Shown piece by piece: positions 18,937 to 27,381 of a stretch of 64,000 bases of DNA. The stretch is taken from positions 9,662 to 73,661 of the forward strand of contig JBJETW010000008.1 in the NCBI GenBank assembly GCA_051883515.1, read 5' to 3'. A model generated the notes under the pieces. The model saw only the letters and a list, made by a program, of their open reading frames with translations, was not told where the DNA came from and did not search any database. Source of the DNA: Candidatus Onthoplasma sp. (GTDB lineage: Bacteria; Bacillota; Clostridia; Christensenellales; UBA1242). The position numbers and the translations under genes are program-made. The first letter of the stretch is position 1. Each line of letters starts with the position of its first letter.

Positions 18937-20751
18937 ATGGATTTAGTGCTTGACAAAGTTAAAAGATTGCCCAATGATGCAGGTGTCTACATCATGAAAG
19001 ACAAAGACAATAATGTTATCTATGTGGGCAAAGCAAAAAATTTAAAGAAAAGAGTTAGTCAATATTTCTTAAGAAAACAAGACCATTTAAAAGTAAAAAA
19101 CATGGTCAAAAATGTGGTTGACTTTGATTTTTTTGTTGTTAACGATGAAGTTGAAGCACTTGCGCTTGAAAATAATTTGATAAAAAAATATAAACCTTAT
19201 TATAACATTCTTCTAAAAGACGGGAAAACCTATGCGTACATCAAAGTGAATTTAAAAGAAGATTTCCCGAGATTCGAGATTTCAAGAAGGTTAAATAAAA
19301 ATGACAAATATTTTGGTCCATATATGGCAGGGGTGAGTGCAAAAGACGTTTTGTCTATCATGGATTATGCATTCCCATTGAGAAAGTGCAAGCAAGTTAT
19401 CACCGAAAACAAAAAGCCGTTTAAACCTTGTTTGTTCAAAGAAATGCATATGTGCTCAGCGCCATGTGCAAAATTGATTTCAAAACAGGAATATATGGAA
19501 ATTGTGGACAAGGCAATAAAGTTTTTAAAAGGTGACACAAAAGAAGTTGAAACGCTTTTAAAACAAAAAATGGAAGTCGCTTCAAAAAATGAAAATTTTG
19601 AGACAGCACTCTTGATTCGTGACCGATTGAAAATGTTAGAAAAATTGAAATCTAATGTAATCACCAGTCTTGGTTCGTTGGTTGATTATGACATATTCAA
19701 TCTTGCAACAAGTGGCGAGTTTTCTGCTATGTGTGCTTTGTCAATACGCGGTGGGAAACTTCAAGGAGTTCAAACTTTTGACATTTTAAATTTTTTGGAC
19801 GAAGTTGAAGCATATTCTCAATTCATTATGCAATATTATTCAACACACCCGCTAATTGCAGATGAGATAATTTTGCCAGATATTGACACAAAAGAAATAG
19901 AAATTATATTAAGAGAAAAATCAAACAAAAAAATCACAATAATAAAACCCAAAATTGACAGTGTAAAGCACAAACTTCTTGAAATGGCGGAAAAGAACGC
20001 TCATCTTCATATGGAAAAGAATTTGGACATCAACACAAAAAAAATAAACGCCAGCATTGGCGCGATGAAGCAGTTGCAACAAGATTTAAACTTGAAACAT
20101 ATTCCAAAGCGTATTGAATGTTATGACATTTCGCACACATATGGAACATATACGGTTGCAAGTATGGTTGTTTTAATAAACGGCGAAAAAGCAAAAAAGA
20201 TGTATCGCAAGTTTAAAATCGAAACGGTAGATTTTATTGATGATTTTGCTTCCATGCGTGAAGTTTTAACACGCAGAATGGAAAAATTGAATTCAGATGA
20301 TATAAGTTTTTCTAGTGTGCCAGATTTGATTGTGATTGATGGGGGAAAAGGTCAACTTAGTTCGGCAGTCGAAGTCCTTACAAAATATAATTATCCAAAC
20401 GATTTAATAAGTTTGGCAAAAAGGGAAGAAGAAGTATTCAAGCCAAACGGAAGCAAACCTTATATATTAAAAAAGGGCAGTTATTCGTTAAGACTTTTGC
20501 AACTAGCACGAGATGAAGCGCATAGATTTGCAATAACATTCAATCGTGAGTTAAGGTCGAAAGGAATGTTCAAGTCAGGGCTAGAATCAATTGCGGGTGT
20601 GGGTCCAGCAACAAGAAGAACCTTGATTTCAAATTTCAGGACAATTGAAAACATAAAAAATGCAACTTTAACCCAACTTGAACAAACAAAAGGCATAACA
20701 AAACCCACAGCAAAGAAAATATATGAACATTTTCACTCTGAAAAAGATTAA
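18937..20751 (+). CDS. uvrC: Excinuclease ABC subunit C
   Basis: GIY-YIG motif GVYIM..IYVGKAKNLKKRV; RIECYDISH; IDGGKGQ; RDEAHRFA; HhH. Confidence 0.97.
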   Translation: MDLVLDKVKRLPNDAGVYIMKDKDNNVIYVGKAKNLKKRVSQYFLRKQDHLKVKNMVKNVVDFDFFVVNDEVEALALENNLIKKYKPYYNILLKDGKTYAYIKVNLKEDFPRFEISRRLNKNDKYFGPYMAGVSAKDVLSIMDYAFPLRKCKQVITENKKPFKPCLFKEMHMCSAPCAKLISKQEYMEIVDKAIKFLKGDTKEVETLLKQKMEVASKNENFETALLIRDRLKMLEKLKSNVITSLGSLVDYDIFNLATSGEFSAMCALSIRGGKLQGVQTFDILNFLDEVEAYSQFIMQYYSTHPLIADEIILPDIDTKEIEIILREKSNKKITIIKPKIDSVKHKLLEMAEKNAHLHMEKNLDINTKKINASIGAMKQLQQDLNLKHIPKRIECYDISHTYGTYTVASMVVLINGEKAKKMYRKFKIETVDFIDDFASMREVLTRRMEKLNSDDISFSSVPDLIVIDGGKGQLSSAVEVLTKYNYPNDLISLAKREEEVFKPNGSKPYILKKGSYSLRLLQLARDEAHRFAITFNRELRSKGMFKSGLESIAGVGPATRRTLISNFRTIENIKNATLTQLEQTKGITKPTAKKIYEHFHSEKD

Positions 20752-20948
20752 ATTTGCATTTTTGTAATAACAAACAAAACCATTTGAAATAATTTTTTTG
20801 AGACAACATTAAGAATTTCCTTTTACAAAGGAAAGTGGAAATTATAAATAATAAAATTGGCACTCTAAATAAAAGTTTGCCAATTTTTTTAAATTTTTTT
20901 GCATTTTTGCTTGACATTTGGTTATAATAGGAGTAGAATGGAAGCGAA

Positions 20949-20965
20949 AGTCAAAGAAAGTCAAA
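20949..20965 (+). promoter_or_regulatory. CtsR operator (heptad direct repeat)
   Basis: AGTCAAA-GAA-AGTCAAA matches the RGTCAAA-NAN-RGTCAAA consensus; it lies just downstream of TATAAT (20923) and upstream of the ctsR RBS. Confidence 0.88.
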
Positions 20966-20991
20966 CTTTCAAAAAAAAGGAGGCAAAAGTT

Positions 20992-21462
20992 GTGAAAAGT
21001 GTGAGTGATATCATTGAAGAGTTCATTATGAACAGTCTAGACTCAGACGATTTCATTGAATTGTCGAGAAATGATTTGGCGAAGTTCTTTTCTTGTGTCC
21101 CAAGCCAAATCAATTATGTGTTGAACACAAGATTCACCCTAAACCGCGGATTTGTAGTCGAAAGTCAGCGTGGTGGCGGTGGGTACATCAAAGTTATGAG
21201 ATTGGTTGACACAAACAGCAACTTTTTAAACAAGGCATTGAATTTATGTGAAAAGCCAATGAGTCAAGTTGAAGGAAATCAATTGATTATGCAAATGCGT
21301 GACAAAAATCTTATAACAGACAAAGAAGAAGGAATTTTAAAATCTGCGACAAGCGGAAAAGCGCTCAACAATCCTATTAATTTTGACGACAAATTGCGTT
21401 CTTCAATTTTAAAACAAGTGGTTATTGAGTTAATGAAAAATCAAGATAGAAAAGGAGAATAA
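20992..21462 (+). CDS. ctsR: Class III heat-shock repressor CtsR
   Basis: SVSDIIEEFI, CVPSQINYVLNTRFT and VESQRGGGGYI motifs; GTG start at 20992 after AGGAGG. Confidence 0.95.
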   Translation: MKSVSDIIEEFIMNSLDSDDFIELSRNDLAKFFSCVPSQINYVLNTRFTLNRGFVVESQRGGGGYIKVMRLVDTNSNFLNKALNLCEKPMSQVEGNQLIMQMRDKNLITDKEEGILKSATSGKALNNPINFDDKLRSSILKQVVIELMKNQDRKGE

Positions 21463-21464
21463 TT

Positions 21465-21959
21465 ATGAAATGTGATAGATGTGGTCGCCCTAGTGTTTAC
21501 CATTCAACGTTGGTTGTAAATGGAGTTAGTCAAACGACAAATTTATGTAGAGAATGTGCAATAAAAGAAGGAGTTTTTTCAAAACAACCAACCAGCATAT
21601 TTGACGATATGTTTTCAGTTTTTTCTGACATTTTACCTTTTGAAAAGGTTGAAGACATTGTTTGTCCGGTTTGCAAAACAAGTTTGAGAGAATATAGAAA
21701 CACAAACAAATTTGGTTGTGCAAATTGTTATGAAGTTTTCAGAAAAGAAATTTCAAATATTTTGAAAAGGATTGCACCATTTGAAACGCACAAACAAGAC
21801 AAACTTGAAATGCCAAAAGAAACAAAAACAAAACAAACAAAACAAGACAAAATCAATGATTTAAGAGAACAAATGAAGCAAGCAGTTGAAGAAGAGAGAT
21901 ACGAAGACGCGGCAAAAATTAAGAAACAAATTCAAAAATTGGAGGCAAAAGATGAATAG
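21465..21959 (+). CDS. mcsA: McsA (CXXC motifs plus UVR domain)
   Basis: Four CXXC motifs; AVEEERYEDAAKIK UVR helix. Confidence 0.92.
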   Translation: MKCDRCGRPSVYHSTLVVNGVSQTTNLCRECAIKEGVFSKQPTSIFDDMFSVFSDILPFEKVEDIVCPVCKTSLREYRNTNKFGCANCYEVFRKEISNILKRIAPFETHKQDKLEMPKETKTKQTKQDKINDLREQMKQAVEEERYEDAAKIKKQIQKLEAKDE

Positions 21960-22878
21960 TGTTATTTTCACAAAAGTTAATATTTTTAGAAATTTAAAAG
22001 ACTACAAATTTTTGCCAAAACTTGAAAACTCAAAAAAAGAAGAGATAGTTGAAAAGGTTTCTGACGCGTTAAAAGGCAAAATGAGTTTAAATTATTTGCC
22101 AAAAGCGAGTGAAGAATTTATGAACAAATTGAAAGAAAATGGATTGTTGACTCCAAATGTTAACAACATTTTCACAAAAAGTGAAGGGAACACGATTGTT
22201 GAAATGTTCTCTGACGAGCATATCGCTATCAAATCTTCAACTTTTGGTTTTGATAGTCAAATTTTCAGTGATGCAAAAGAGATAAGTGATTTACTTTCAA
22301 ACAAATTAAATCTCGCGTTCAGTGATGAATATGGATTTTTGATGAGCGACTTAAAAAAGGTTGGTTCAGGGATTAAAATTGAAAGTTTGCTATCACTTAA
22401 TGGTCTCAGTCGAATTAATAAAATTGAACAAGTTAAACAAAATGTTGCAAAACTTGGATATTCGTTGATTCCAACAGACTTGAAGAATGTTTATGTTTTG
22501 ACAACTAATTGCAATTTGGGATTCAGCGAAAAAGAAGTTTTCGAGGATTTTGAAAAAACACTTAAAAATATAGACAATCTTGAAATTGAAAGTTTGAAAA
22601 TGCAAGATGTTTCAAGTCATGACGAGTTGCAAGATAAAGTTGAAAGGGCAAAAGCAATTTTGACTTCCGCTCATCTTATGACGCAAAATGAACTTGAAAT
22701 GCATTTGTCAACTTTAAGAATGGGAAATAGTTTGAATCTTTGCGATATTGATGATGAAAAAATTAAACATGCGGAAAAACTTTGTCTTTTCAACAAGAAA
22801 GAGACAATTTCTCAATCTGAGATGAAAGATTTGGCAAACGAAGTTAGAAATTTATTCAAAGGAGGTAAAAATGTATAA
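21952..22878 (+). CDS. mcsB: McsB-like protein, probably a catalytically inactive arginine-kinase homolog
   Basis: Canonical operon position and colinear fold, but NEEDH, CPTN and RGxxGEGS are altered or deleted; ATG 21952 follows GGAGG. Confidence 0.82.
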   Translation: MNSVIFTKVNIFRNLKDYKFLPKLENSKKEEIVEKVSDALKGKMSLNYLPKASEEFMNKLKENGLLTPNVNNIFTKSEGNTIVEMFSDEHIAIKSSTFGFDSQIFSDAKEISDLLSNKLNLAFSDEYGFLMSDLKKVGSGIKIESLLSLNGLSRINKIEQVKQNVAKLGYSLIPTDLKNVYVLTTNCNLGFSEKEVFEDFEKTLKNIDNLEIESLKMQDVSSHDELQDKVERAKAILTSAHLMTQNELEMHLSTLRMGNSLNLCDIDDEKIKHAEKLCLFNKKETISQSEMKDLANEVRNLFKGGKNV

Positions 22879-25330
22879 TTTAACAGATTTAGCAAACAAA
22901 ATTATTCAAGTTGCTTCACAATATGCCTCTCACAGCACAAACGAAGTTGGCACAGAGCACATTTTGTATGCTTTCACAAAAGTTGAAAGCAAAGCAAAAA
23001 CTTTGTTGCAAGCGTATCATGTTGACACGAAGACTATTCAAGAAATTTTGGATAGCGTTGGTTCAAAAGGAACACCATCTAATGTGGTTGAACTCACACC
23101 AAGAGTTAGAGAGATGTTGATGATTGCAAATTCAATTGCAAAGAGAACTCACAGTTCATACATTGCTCCTGAACATCTCTTGGTAGCACTTTTAAGTCAA
23201 GAAGAAAGTTTTGCAATTAATATTTTGTCTGGAGTTTTAAATTTGGACGTATTTGAGTTGAGAAATAAAGCAATCATGATATTAAATTCAAGCAATGTCA
23301 GTGATTCTTTTAATGATGATGGTTTGGTCCAAGTTGGAAATTTGAACAAGTCAACACCAAAACAAACTCAACAAAACTACACAAGCGAACTTAGTCAAGA
23401 ACTTTTGGACATGGGCAGTGATTTAACTTTGCGTGCAAAAAATGGAAAAATCGACCCCATCATTGGTCGAGACGCAGAAATTGAGCGTATGATTGAAATT
23501 CTTTGCAGAAAGACGAAAAACAATCCGGTTTTAATTGGTGAAGCTGGAGTTGGAAAAACTGCAATCGTTGAAGGACTTGCAAGAAAAATCGTTGAAGGTG
23601 ATGTTCCAGACCTTCTGAAGAATAAAATTATTTATTCCTTAGATATCGGCGGGCTTATGGCAGGAACAAAATATCGTGGAAGCATGGAAGAAAAACTTAA
23701 AAGTGCAATAGAAACAATAACATCAAACAAGAATATTATTGTTTTCATTGACGAAATCCACACTCTTGCTCAAGCGGGAAGTGAAAAAGGCGAAACAAAC
23801 CCAGCGGACATGTTAAAACCATATCTTGCACGTGGTGAAATGCAAACAATCGGCGCAACAACGACAGACGAATATAGAAGATACATTGAAAAAGATAAAG
23901 CACTTGAAAGAAGATTTCAACCAATAACAGTAGACCCACCAACAGTTGAACAAACAATTGAAATCTTAAAAGGTTTAAGAAATTCTTATGAGAACTTCCA
24001 TAAAGTGAAAATCAGCGATGAAGCAATAAAATCAGCAGCGACACTCAGTGACCGTTATATTCAAGATAGAAGTCTTCCAGACAAAGCAATTGACTTGATT
24101 GATGAAGCATCAAGTAGGGCAAAAGTTAAAGCAAACAGTGATTCACCAGAGATAGCAAAACTTAAATCTCAATTGGAAAATCTTGAAAAAGAAAAGAGTA
24201 AAGCTGTGGCTGATGAAGATTTTGAAAAAGCAGGGAAATTGAGAGACAAAATTTCTTCAACAAAGCAAGAAATTGAGAGACAAAAATCACTTCCAGCCAC
24301 ACAAACAGATAATATTTACACTGTGACGGAACACGACATTGCAGAAGTGATTAGCAAGTGGACCAACATTCCACTCACGAAACTCACAGAAGGCGAAGCG
24401 GAAAGATTGTTGAATCTTGAAAAAGTTTTAACTGAAAGAGTTAAAGGTCAAGACGAAGCAGTTGAAAAGGTTGCAAAAGCAATCAGAAGAAGCAGAATTG
24501 GAATCAGAGACCCTAAAAGACCAATTGGAAGTTTCTTGTTCTTGGGTCCAACTGGTGTTGGTAAAACAGAATTGAGCAAAGCACTTGCAGAAGCATTGTT
24601 CGACGATGAAAACAAGATAATCAGACTTGACATGAGTGAGTTTATGGAAGCACACAGCGTGTCAAAATTGATAGGTAGTCCTCCAGGATACGTTGGATTT
24701 GACGATGGTGGACAACTCACCGAACAAGTTAGAAGAAAACCATATTCAGTTGTTTTGTTTGATGAAATTGAGAAAGCGCACCCAGAAGTGTTTAATATGT
24801 TGCTACAAATTCTTGACGATGGACGACTTACAGATAGTCACGGAAGGGTTGTAAGTTTCAAAAACACAATCATCATTTTAACTTCTAATATTGGAAGTGA
24901 CAAACTCACAAAGAACAATGTTGATTTAGGATTCAACGATTCAAAGAAAGATGATAAATCAGCAATTGCGCTTGACGAATTGAAAAAATATTTCAAACCA
25001 GAACTTATCAATCGTATTGACAACATTGTTGTATTCAACAAACTTTCAACAACAGTTTTGAAAGAGATTGCAAAGAAAATGCTTGGAGATTTAAACAAAC
25101 AACTAAAGCAAAATGGTGTTGAACTTAAATTTACAGCGAATACATTGAATTATCTCGTCAAAAACGGAACAAATGAAGATTTTGGCGCACGTCCATTGAA
25201 ACGATTAATCACAAGTAAAATTGAAGATGAACTTGCAGACAGAATGTTGAAAGGCGAAGTCAAGAAAGGCGACAATGTCCTTGTGGATTGCAAAGATAAC
25301 AAATTAATTTTCTTGACAAAACAAGAATAA
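22871..25330 (+). CDS. clpC: ATP-dependent Clp protease ATPase subunit ClpC
   Basis: Double Clp-N domain, GEAGVGKT, UVR M-domain, GPTGVGKT, GARPLKR. Confidence 0.96.
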   Translation: MYNLTDLANKIIQVASQYASHSTNEVGTEHILYAFTKVESKAKTLLQAYHVDTKTIQEILDSVGSKGTPSNVVELTPRVREMLMIANSIAKRTHSSYIAPEHLLVALLSQEESFAINILSGVLNLDVFELRNKAIMILNSSNVSDSFNDDGLVQVGNLNKSTPKQTQQNYTSELSQELLDMGSDLTLRAKNGKIDPIIGRDAEIERMIEILCRKTKNNPVLIGEAGVGKTAIVEGLARKIVEGDVPDLLKNKIIYSLDIGGLMAGTKYRGSMEEKLKSAIETITSNKNIIVFIDEIHTLAQAGSEKGETNPADMLKPYLARGEMQTIGATTTDEYRRYIEKDKALERRFQPITVDPPTVEQTIEILKGLRNSYENFHKVKISDEAIKSAATLSDRYIQDRSLPDKAIDLIDEASSRAKVKANSDSPEIAKLKSQLENLEKEKSKAVADEDFEKAGKLRDKISSTKQEIERQKSLPATQTDNIYTVTEHDIAEVISKWTNIPLTKLTEGEAERLLNLEKVLTERVKGQDEAVEKVAKAIRRSRIGIRDPKRPIGSFLFLGPTGVGKTELSKALAEALFDDENKIIRLDMSEFMEAHSVSKLIGSPPGYVGFDDGGQLTEQVRRKPYSVVLFDEIEKAHPEVFNMLLQILDDGRLTDSHGRVVSFKNTIIILTSNIGSDKLTKNNVDLGFNDSKKDDKSAIALDELKKYFKPELINRIDNIVVFNKLSTTVLKEIAKKMLGDLNKQLKQNGVELKFTANTLNYLVKNGTNEDFGARPLKRLITSKIEDELADRMLKGEVKKGDNVLVDCKDNKLIFLTKQE

Positions 25331-25342
25331 AACAACTTGAAT

Positions 25343-25371
25343 AAAAAAAGACCAGTTTTTGGTCTTTTTTT
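25343..25371. terminator. Bidirectional intrinsic terminator
   Basis: A7-GACCA-gtttt-TGGTC-T7. Confidence 0.85.
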
Positions 25372-25972
25372 ATGTTAAAATTACTTTTTCAAATTTGGCA
25401 TCTTCAAAAAATTTAATGTCAGTTTCTGAGATTATAATTTGAGAAAATTTTACAGCATAGTCTATAAGGTGTTTTGCTAAATCATAAAAATTAGAGTCAA
25501 TATTTTCAAAAATATTTTCAATTAAAATGTATTTTGGTTTGTGAATAATTGAACGAATTAGAGAAATTAGAATTTTCTCTGATTTATTTAATTCTTTGAC
25601 GCGCTTAGAAATAAAATCTAAATTAAAATTTTCAATAAATTTATCAAAAATTTCTTTTCTTTCAGTCTTTTTAATTTTTCTAATTTTTAAAGGATATGTT
25701 ATATTTTCAAAAATTGATTTATGTTGAAATAATTGAGGGATAGTTGGGACATATGCTACAGGATAATTATTATTTTTTATTTTTTTTATATTTATTCCAT
25801 CAATTAAAATTTCTCCAGAAAAATTATCAAAATTTAAAATTGTGCGAAAAATTGCGCTTGTTTGTTCAATTTTTCCAATTAAAATTGTGTTTTTTGAAAA
25901 TTTTTTTGAAAAATCAAATAAACTTGCGTAATATGAAAAATATTGAATTGTCACATTTTTTAATTCTATCAC
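25370..25972 (-). CDS. Degenerate ABC-ATPase-like protein (no intact Walker A)
   Basis: FSGEILIDG, LFQHKSIFENITYPL and ISLIRSIIHKPKYILIE are ABC-like; the GxxGxGKS position reads GKIEQTSA. Confidence 0.65.
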   Translation of the reverse strand: MIELKNVTIQYFSYYASLFDFSKKFSKNTILIGKIEQTSAIFRTILNFDNFSGEILIDGINIKKIKNNNYPVAYVPTIPQLFQHKSIFENITYPLKIRKIKKTERKEIFDKFIENFNLDFISKRVKELNKSEKILISLIRSIIHKPKYILIENIFENIDSNFYDLAKHLIDYAVKFSQIIISETDIKFFEDAKFEKVILT

Positions 25973-26003: not shown

Positions 26004-27113
26004 TCAATCATTTGTAAAAGTTAAAAATCCATATCCTTCTATATCGCGGTCATGAAGAATGGGTTTTGAGTTTGAGAGCAGAAATCTTTTAATTTGGTTG
26101 TTGCTGAGTTTTGGGAACCTAGAAAGAAGGCATGCACAAATTCCAGCAACAATTGGAGTTGCGACGCTTGTTCCGCTCATTTTTGTGTAAGGAAGCGCTT
26201 TGTTGTTGCAAGAGATAACATCTACAGCAGGGGCGACCAAATCAGGTTTGTGCCCATAAATTGTTGGACCTCTGCTTGAAAAATCTGCAATTGACATTGA
26301 GTCAATTTCAAACCCACCAACAGTGATGATATTTGGATTAATTCCTGGTGACTTGATTGTTCTTTCTTTTGGACCGCTGTTTCCTGCTGCGGCAACCACA
26401 ACAATTCCTTTTTTCCACAATGCTTCAGCACCAAAAGACAATGGGTCGCTCATTAAGTTTACATCTGCACCAAAACTCATGCACACAACTTTAATGTTAT
26501 ACGTTTTGTGATTTTCAAACACCCATTGCATGGCGTCCAAGATAAGATTGCTATCACTGTTCCCATTTGAGTTTAGTGCTTTCAAACTTACTATATTTGC
26601 TCTTGGAGCAAAGCCAGCATTTCCTTTTGAAAAAATGCCATTTCCGCACGCAATTCCTGCCACGAATGTGCCGTGTCCGTTGTCATCATATGGTTCGGTT
26701 TTTCCGTTTACAAAATCCACAAATTTCAAAATTCTAGACTTTGGAAATAAAAAATCTAAGTGCGGATAAATTCCAGTGTCAATGAAACATATGGTTTGAT
26801 TTTGACCAAGAAAAGTGTGTTCAGTTATGTTTTCCACATGCATAAAATCTTTTTCATATTGTTCAATTTTAACAGGAAAATTTTCACAAATAAAATCAAC
26901 CGACTTAAGATGTGACATCTCTTTAATTTTTTCAAAATTAGCGTTGCAGGAAAAACACTTTGCAAATTTAAATGTCTGAAAATTTATGTTAGAATTCAAA
27001 AGGTATTTTTCAGTTTCCTTGATGCTGTTTGACAAAATAAAAATATTTTCAGTTGAATTTGAAAGGACTGAAACTTTGTTAATTAAATTTTTGCTGATTT
27101 TATTTTTGACCAT
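26004..27113 (-). CDS. S8 subtilisin-family serine protease (AprX-like)
   Basis: Catalytic motifs FIDTG (Asp), NGHGTFVAG (His) and SGTSVATP (Ser); no signal peptide. Confidence 0.9.
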   Translation of the reverse strand: MVKNKISKNLINKVSVLSNSTENIFILSNSIKETEKYLLNSNINFQTFKFAKCFSCNANFEKIKEMSHLKSVDFICENFPVKIEQYEKDFMHVENITEHTFLGQNQTICFIDTGIYPHLDFLFPKSRILKFVDFVNGKTEPYDDNGHGTFVAGIACGNGIFSKGNAGFAPRANIVSLKALNSNGNSDSNLILDAMQWVFENHKTYNIKVVCMSFGADVNLMSDPLSFGAEALWKKGIVVVAAAGNSGPKERTIKSPGINPNIITVGGFEIDSMSIADFSSRGPTIYGHKPDLVAPAVDVISCNNKALPYTKMSGTSVATPIVAGICACLLSRFPKLSNNQIKRFLLSNSKPILHDRDIEGYGFLTFTND

Positions 27114-27381
27114 TGATTGCATCTATAATGTCGTTTAACATGTGTTTTTGTTCTTCGTTTAGGAACATGGCTAAACTAGATTTTAAAGAGTTTAAGGTTG
27201 AACTGTCCAGTTTTCCTTCGCTTTTTAATTTGCTTGCTTGTTCGAAAAGATTAGCCATCAGTTCATTTTGATTCATGTTTTTGTATTTGTTTAAAATGTC
27301 TTGATACTCGCTAACTTTTTCAGGATTTTCTTTTGCTATATTTTCGTGTTCTTTTGCAAAAGTTTTGAAATCTCTTGGCAT
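27100..27381 (-). CDS. Hypothetical small helical protein, probably sporulation-related
   Basis: ATG 27381 after GGAG; stop overlaps the S8 protease start. Confidence 0.65.
   Translation of the reverse strand: MPRDFKTFAKEHENIAKENPEKVSEYQDILNKYKNMNQNELMANLFEQASKLKSEGKLDSSTLNSLKSSLAMFLNEEQKHMLNDIIDAINGQK

Follow-up and report, generated by a model that had tools for sequence, protein, structure and literature searches.

A probable McsB pseudokinase retained in the ctsR-mcsA-mcsB-clpC operon of Candidatus Onthoplasma

McsB is the founding member of the protein-arginine kinases; in Gram-positive bacteria it writes the phosphoarginine (pArg) tag that marks proteins for degradation. Here we describe an McsB that is very probably a pseudokinase, catalytically dead and at the same time kept by selection. 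Its gene lies in a 64,000-nucleotide stretch of contig JBJETW010000008.1 from Candidatus Onthoplasma sp. (the window, to which coordinates refer unless another contig is named), where it is the third gene of a ctsR-mcsA-mcsB-clpC operon. The source is a 15-contig metagenome-assembled genome (MAG) of 934 kb (0.93 Mb), 97.7% complete, from UBA1242 (Christensenellales), a gut lineage that is uncultured and has genomes under ~1 Mb (PMC12306168). The initial annotation, made from the DNA letters alone, had proposed that this McsB lost every catalytic motif and that the stress-response system around it is independent of pArg. The pseudokinase reading is supported by the present analysis, in which no intact second copy, no neutral drift and no sequencing error was found. 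Given the loss of the McsB catalytic residues together with the absence of the cognate phosphatase, it is almost certain that arginine phosphorylation plays no part in the CtsR-McsA-McsB-ClpC circuit of Onthoplasma.

By sequence and predicted fold, the 308-residue product of 21952-22878 is a full-length McsB. Against the Pfam phosphagen-kinase family PF00217 it scores 57.6 bits; its scores against the NCBIfam McsB equivalogs, 60-105 bits, fall far below their thresholds of 381-679 bits (top score 105.3 against a cut-off of 385). AlphaFold2, given 55 family members, predicts the structure with confidence (predicted local distance difference test, pLDDT, 89.5; predicted TM-score, pTM, 0.87), and the top Foldseek matches of this model are full-length McsBs with the dimerisation domain, namely 6tv6, 6fh3 and 8gqd (query TM-score, TMq, 0.78-0.82 over ~320 columns). 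The known McsBs of Bacillus subtilis, Geobacillus stearothermophilus and Staphylococcus aureus (6TV6, 6FH1-3, 8GQD, 8WTB) have the same two-domain fold (TMq ~0.8) and the same operon slot between mcsA and clpC, 3' of ctsR and a CtsR box, whereas their sequence identity to the Onthoplasma protein is ~19% and the latter is 55 residues shorter. They also possess the ATP-binding arginines, E121, C167, E212, the RGxYGEG loop and R337/D338, all of which are missing from the Onthoplasma protein, just as the YwlE partner is missing from its genome. In a maximum-likelihood tree the UBA1242 clade nests among the canonical Christensenellales McsBs (support 100/97), which makes the protein an McsB orthologue by descent as well as by operon position.

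The lost residues were mapped, in B. subtilis numbering, by alignment to McsBs in the Protein Data Bank (PDB) and by a 50-sequence alignment; the mapping agrees with the residues given in PMC11046695 and PMC8370763, and residue roles were drawn from these two papers, from PMC12583610 and by comparison with arginine kinase. All motif changes listed in the initial annotation were borne out. The motif SSRIRLARN has become FTKVNIFRN, with R29 replaced by K8 and R31 by N10; NEEDHIRI has become FS-DEHIAI, with E121 replaced by D88 (Gly in most congeners) and R125 by A92; and SCPTNVGTGLR has become SDLKKVGSGIK, with C167 replaced by D133 (Asp or Asn in the genus) and R176 by K142. The VRGIYGEGS loop, which carries the RGxYGEG motif, is deleted, taking R207 and E212 with it. 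None of the columns of the five phosphate-binding arginines (R29, R31, R125, R176 and R207), which we take to correspond to R124/R126/R229/R280/R309 of arginine kinase (1BG0), is conserved as Arg in the genus. Glu121 and Glu212 are likewise catalytic residues, and Cys167 has been named the catalytic cysteine of McsB (PMC11046695). No residue for binding the phosphates of ATP or the guanidinium group is left. The residues that are retained fall into two groups: structural ones (R34-N35, the glycines, and D122-H123, which read E89-H90 here) and those of the loops in contact with McsA.

The claim that the C-terminal dimerisation region is retained holds in part. Its fold is preserved in the model; the pArg-binding pocket that it carries is not. 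In the canonical protein, R337/D338 of this domain form the allosteric pArg receptor site (PMC8370763), and the ERDxxRA motif that holds them reads SQSEMKDLAN in the source species. Across the whole UBA1242 family ERDxxRA is replaced by S-E/L-x-x-L-A, and this includes one member, designated L129 (G061, 0.8 Mb, of the same reduced family), whose catalytic motifs are all canonical. Since L129 already lacks R337/D338, the allosteric site was probably lost in the ancestor of the UBA1242 family, before the catalytic decay.

Could the protein still be an arginine kinase, or another kinase, with a rebuilt active site, in which Lys8 and Lys142 stand in for Arg29 and Arg176 and Asp88 and Asp133 for Glu121 and Cys167? 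In the source species basic or acidic residues do occupy four of the eight positions, and ClpC retains most of the residues of its pArg pocket. Yet the genus as a whole does not conserve these stand-ins: its E121 column is mostly Gly, and its R176 column holds K, E, R, Q, N, H or F. Nothing takes the place of R31, R125, R207 or E212, the RGxYGEG loop has been deleted, the pArg receptor site is lost, and the cognate phosphatase has disappeared in lock-step with the motifs. We regard a rebuilt kinase as very unlikely.

This last point emerged from a survey of the rest of the pArg machinery. In the source genome, no second mcsB or other guanidino kinase was found, nor any match to LMWPc (PF01451), the family of YwlE-type phosphatases, nor MecA; clpP is present. 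The one candidate for a second mcsB, a match to PF00217 of 11.5 bits (E 0.07), proved to be an HI0933-like flavoprotein and was rejected. An alignment of McsB across the lineage and a search for ywlE, both proposed in the initial annotation, yielded a consistent picture. The degenerate motifs are shared by all 37 Onthoplasma species and by more than 100 protein clusters (90% identity) in public data, and LMWPc is found in none of the 37 Onthoplasma genomes. Among the other families of Christensenellales LMWPc is present in 20 of 24, including all 11 that have a canonical McsB; the one other family with a degenerate McsB (G044) is without it. G062, G063, G064 and G065, which also have a degenerate McsB, lack LMWPc as well. 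Taken together, each of the 12 genomes with canonical McsB possesses the phosphatase, and each of the 42 with degenerate McsB is without it.

The sister clade within UBA1242 served as a test of the predicted co-loss. L129, the member with canonical motifs, carries an LMWPc protein with the YwlE-type P-loop CTGNTCRS. L103 and L107 (G062 and G063), from other UBA1242 genera, have McsBs that decayed differently from those of Onthoplasma (STKIQILRN, NEQDHIVTT and CSSLNDIGSAMHVSV), and their genomes have no LMWPc. Similarly, a member of another Christensenellales family with a 1.7-Mb genome (L050; G044:C3:37765-38619) encodes a degenerate McsB with FTEVSLRRN, NMDEHLVLR and GYLSYRPALAGSGLHVRL and with RGxYGEG replaced; its branch is very long (3.1 changes per site) and its genome also lacks LMWPc. 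In the maximum-likelihood tree L129 groups with L103 and L107 (99/94), this group is sister to Onthoplasma (100/99), and L050 falls elsewhere. With the canonical L129 inside the UBA1242 clade, the decays in Onthoplasma, in L103/L107 and in L050 are separate events, so that on this tree three independent decays of McsB are needed in Christensenellales.

An artefact of assembly, binning or sequencing comes to mind for any genome that is a 15-contig MAG. However, contigs from four independent pig-gut metagenome studies span the gene at 97.8-99.8% identity and differ from it by substitutions, never by an indel, and the same degenerate motifs recur in dozens of MAGs that were assembled independently, from the gut of chicken, rabbit, sheep, pig and human. 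Sequencing error is thereby ruled out as the source of the motif changes, and an artefact of any kind is next to inconceivable.

It is also improbable, to a degree somewhat beyond that of the rebuilt kinase, that mcsB is a decaying relic of a shrinking genome, kept merely for its position between mcsA and clpC and for the clpC ribosome-binding site (RBS). The genome is indeed strongly reduced, the clpC RBS and start codon fall within the 3' end of mcsB, and the amino-acid sequence of McsB changes two- to threefold faster than that of ClpC. On the other hand, all 37 Onthoplasma species searched and more than 100 clusters carry an intact, full-length open frame, despite the long divergence implied by identities of merely 29-50%. 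In closely related pairs the ratio of non-synonymous to synonymous substitution rates (dN/dS) over the whole gene is 0.03-0.18 for mcsB, compared with 0.006-0.16 for mcsA, 0.04-0.25 for ctsR and 0.016-0.067 for clpC. The constraint on mcsB is thus in the range of ctsR and mcsA, with a dN/dS roughly two- to threefold that of clpC, and purifying selection acts on the gene as strongly as on ctsR and mcsA. These values, together with the lack of another copy, refute the idea of an intact second mcsB that leaves this one to drift neutrally. The fold, moreover, is predicted with confidence from the family alignment, and particular surface loops are almost invariant.

These invariant loops point to McsA. 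In B. subtilis, the second zinc domain of McsA sits in a crevice of McsB that is formed by the lambda1, lambda2 and lambda3 loops (PMC11046695). Lambda1 and lambda3 are the best-conserved segments of the Onthoplasma protein, with a mean top-residue frequency of 0.83 and 0.76, respectively, versus 0.61 overall, and the McsA-contacting residues persist as F20 (F41), K23 (R44) and S132 (S166). The invariant residues of the pseudokinase include R13, N14, K19, F20, K23, E89, H90, D125, G128, K157, N164, C187, G190, E211, S214 and R232. McsA itself, when aligned to chain B of PDB 8WTB, retains all eight zinc-finger cysteines (Z1 and Z2), the FGCxxCY of Z2 and the C-terminal UVR coiled coil. Given the conserved lambda1/lambda3 crevice and an McsA that is intact and similarly constrained, it is very likely that a complex of McsA with the pseudokinase forms. 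CtsR is likewise retained, as had been claimed for both proteins and as their Pfam and NCBIfam matches confirm: it matches PDB 3H0D (E 1e-29) and keeps the GGGG thermosensor loop and the equivalent of Arg62.

What might a McsB without kinase activity do? A precedent comes from thiol stress in B. subtilis, where oxidised McsA lets McsB go and the free McsB strips CtsR off the DNA while its kinase activity is prevented (PMC5506225). As far as this mode is described there after Elsholz et al. 2011, it is non-kinase McsB that acts and the redox cysteines of McsA that gate it, and all eight of these are kept in Onthoplasma; but for B. subtilis McsB, an active kinase, this is one state among others, whereas for the Onthoplasma protein we propose that it would be the only mode. 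Tight binding of McsB to ClpC is a second known behaviour for which catalysis is in principle dispensable (PMC5506225). We consider it likely, though with less assurance than the loss of catalysis itself, that the pseudokinase serves McsA, CtsR and ClpC as a partner without catalytic activity, acting as an anti-repressor and/or a ClpC adaptor; each specific step is less certain than the whole. In such a mechanism the protein would be kept as a structural, stoichiometric part of the stress module. McsA, with both zinc fingers intact, would dock on the lambda1-lambda3 crevice and hold it, and stress (plausibly thiol oxidation or the load of ClpC clients) would free it in a self-contained partner-switch. 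Contacts of the McsA-pseudokinase complex with CtsR and/or ClpC would be made by protein-protein binding, not through pArg. As an anti-repressor, it would titrate CtsR off the single operator ahead of the operon, and it is possibly the sole adaptor or activity regulator of ClpC-ClpP in a cell without MecA. The ClpC adaptors MecA and YpbH resemble this candidate role in being non-enzymatic ClpC binders that control its assembly and activity, and the MecA niche is vacant here; they have, however, no kinship with the pseudokinase in sequence or fold, and ClpC binding by the latter is putative.

An alternative is that the pseudokinase acts on ClpC alone, as an adaptor, an activator or an inhibitor of its resting state, with CtsR ruled only by its intrinsic thermosensor. 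The genome is without MecA, and the translational coupling of mcsB and clpC, a feature that promotes the McsB-ClpC interaction (PMC5506225), agrees with such a role. In B. subtilis the heat inactivation of CtsR is independent of McsB (PMC5506225), and the C-terminal arginines by which CtsR holds pArg appear to be replaced in Onthoplasma. Nevertheless, all relatives examined keep the order ctsR-mcsA-mcsB-clpC, with the four genes linked and under common control; McsA, which senses redox state and is tied to the release of CtsR, is conserved too; and binding to ClpC is itself putative. A role confined to ClpC seems to us rather unlikely, even if clearly better placed than a rebuilt kinase or a relic.

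Several observations weigh against a non-catalytic partner of McsA, CtsR and ClpC. The adaptor function of B. subtilis McsB requires kinase activity, which is why its kinase and adaptor roles are hard to separate (PMC5506225). The capture of CtsR by McsAB in B. subtilis goes via pArg194 and pArg333 of McsB and pArg115 of McsA (2025 preprint); in Onthoplasma R194 is a conserved Gln, R333 is absent and McsA R115 is Lys, and Gly, Asp and Ser stand opposite the arginines by which CtsR is said to bind pArg, in a C-terminal region where the alignment is of low confidence. Since the pArg-holding residues have been replaced, new, pArg-independent interfaces must have evolved. We looked for a phosphomimetic replacement of the residues that hold CtsR and rejected it, as neither the Gln at R194 nor the Lys at McsA R115 is a clear acidic mimic. 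The lambda2 acidic patch that binds loop L3 of McsA (D146, D147, E150, E151 and D154) is mostly replaced. In ClpC, whose N-terminal domain was aligned to 5HBN, the equivalents of the pArg-pocket residues T7, T31-E32 and E106 are kept genus-wide, so some phospho-ligand could still be read; these pockets also serve resting-state and MecA/adaptor contacts. Furthermore, Onthoplasma is uncultured, and transcription of mcsB is weakly indicated by two short pig-gut metatranscriptome contigs that match 21878-22041 and 22572-22745.

Within ClpC, the sole genus-wide change in the pocket region (22871-23290) is at the equivalent of R5, which is Asn in all Onthoplasma species and Arg or Lys in most other Christensenellales; Arg5 is reported to be phosphorylated by McsB, as a requirement for activation. 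An APEH variant in the same protein is specific to the source species, with STEH in most congeners.

A more far-reaching and quite speculative proposal is that the core function of McsA-McsB-ClpC without arginine phosphorylation is a fallback, the chemistry having been dropped at least three times in Christensenellales, each time with YwlE. The dead site of the Onthoplasma protein would then serve as an arginine clamp, and the complex would be the only ClpC adaptor. The conserved Ser-Asp/Asn pair, formerly the Ser-Cys of the catalytic loop, could grip a DNA-reading arginine of CtsR stoichiometrically, with the zinc fingers of McsA gating this grip by redox.

The features of the operon are collected in Table 1. 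A perfect CtsR operator had been noted before; it indeed lies between the promoter and the GTG start of ctsR, and a genome-wide scan identified it as the sole perfect CtsR box in the 934-kb genome. Boxes with one or two mismatches elsewhere in the genome were all intragenic or implausible and were discarded as evidence of a wider CtsR regulon. No recognisable CtsR box was found upstream of clpP, which directly follows a trigger-factor-like gene (tig) on another contig (C6:73300-74164). With a lone perfect operator and no box at clpP, the CtsR regulon seems to be reduced to its own operon, that is, to the auto-regulation of clpC and its neighbours. Overlaps of 8 nt at mcsA/mcsB and at mcsB/clpC, with GGAGG preceding each downstream start, show that mcsA, mcsB and clpC are translationally coupled.

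Table 1. Features of the ctsR-mcsA-mcsB-clpC operon in the window
Feature	Position	Strand	Description
sigma-70-type promoter	20911-20939	+	TTGACA-17 nt-TAGAAT; 11/12 matches; top promoter-like site in 20700-25500; heads the operon
CtsR operator	20949-20965	+	AGTCAAAGAAAGTCAAA; perfect direct heptad repeat with 0 mismatches to RGTCAAANANRGTCAAA; directly 3' of the -10 box
ctsR	20992-21462	+	156 amino acids from GTG; AGGAGG 8 nt upstream; Pfam CtsR 107 bits and CtsR_C 44 bits
mcsA	21465-21959	+	164 amino acids; NCBIfam McsA 96 bits (below the cut-off of 210) and Pfam UVR
mcsB-derived probable pseudokinase	21952-22878	+	308 amino acids; phosphagen-kinase-like and dimerisation domains; catalytic and pArg-pocket residues lost
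clpC	22871-25330	+	819 amino acids; Pfam Clp_N, AAA, AAA_lid_9, AAA_2 and ClpB_D2-small; LGF ClpP-docking loop present

The mechanically called open reading frame (ORF) of ctsR opens at TTG 20899 and runs through the promoter and the CtsR operator; GTG 20992 is the likelier start. Downstream of clpC, two ORFs lie on the opposite strand: one of 200 amino acids at 25370-25972 that resembles a degenerate ABC-type ATPase, and one of 372 amino acids at 26004-27122 that resembles a subtilisin-like serine protease. Near-identical copies of 20900-25400 occur in pig-gut metagenomes from many independent studies, and the species appears to be a common pig-gut resident.

Full-text literature searches retrieved no published natural kinase-dead McsB or McsB pseudokinase, and a 2025 review of bacterial pseudokinases mentions McsB solely as an active kinase (PMC12599244). 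The eukaryotic and bacterial pseudokinases treated there likewise have a kinase fold that was selected after catalytic loss and reused for protein-protein regulation, but theirs is the Hanks-type Ser/Thr fold, whereas that of the Onthoplasma protein is the phosphagen (guanidino) kinase fold. The contributions of the present case are a clean phylogenetic transition within a single family, a YwlE-type phosphatase that is co-lost without exception, the disappearance of the pArg receptor and the MecA-less setting with a single operator. Annotation pipelines label such proteins "protein-arginine kinase" (one Joint Genome Institute name), and for the clade described here this label is probably wrong.

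A natural kinase-dead McsB that is under selection together with McsA, CtsR and ClpC would offer ready-made separation-of-function variants of the module, and its retention argues for an activity of this module that is independent of phosphorylation. The lock-step loss of the YwlE-type phosphatase may also provide a simple predictor of which bacteria use pArg signalling, one that would be relevant to antibacterials targeted at ClpC or McsB and to BacPROTAC-type degraders, which rely on pArg recognition.

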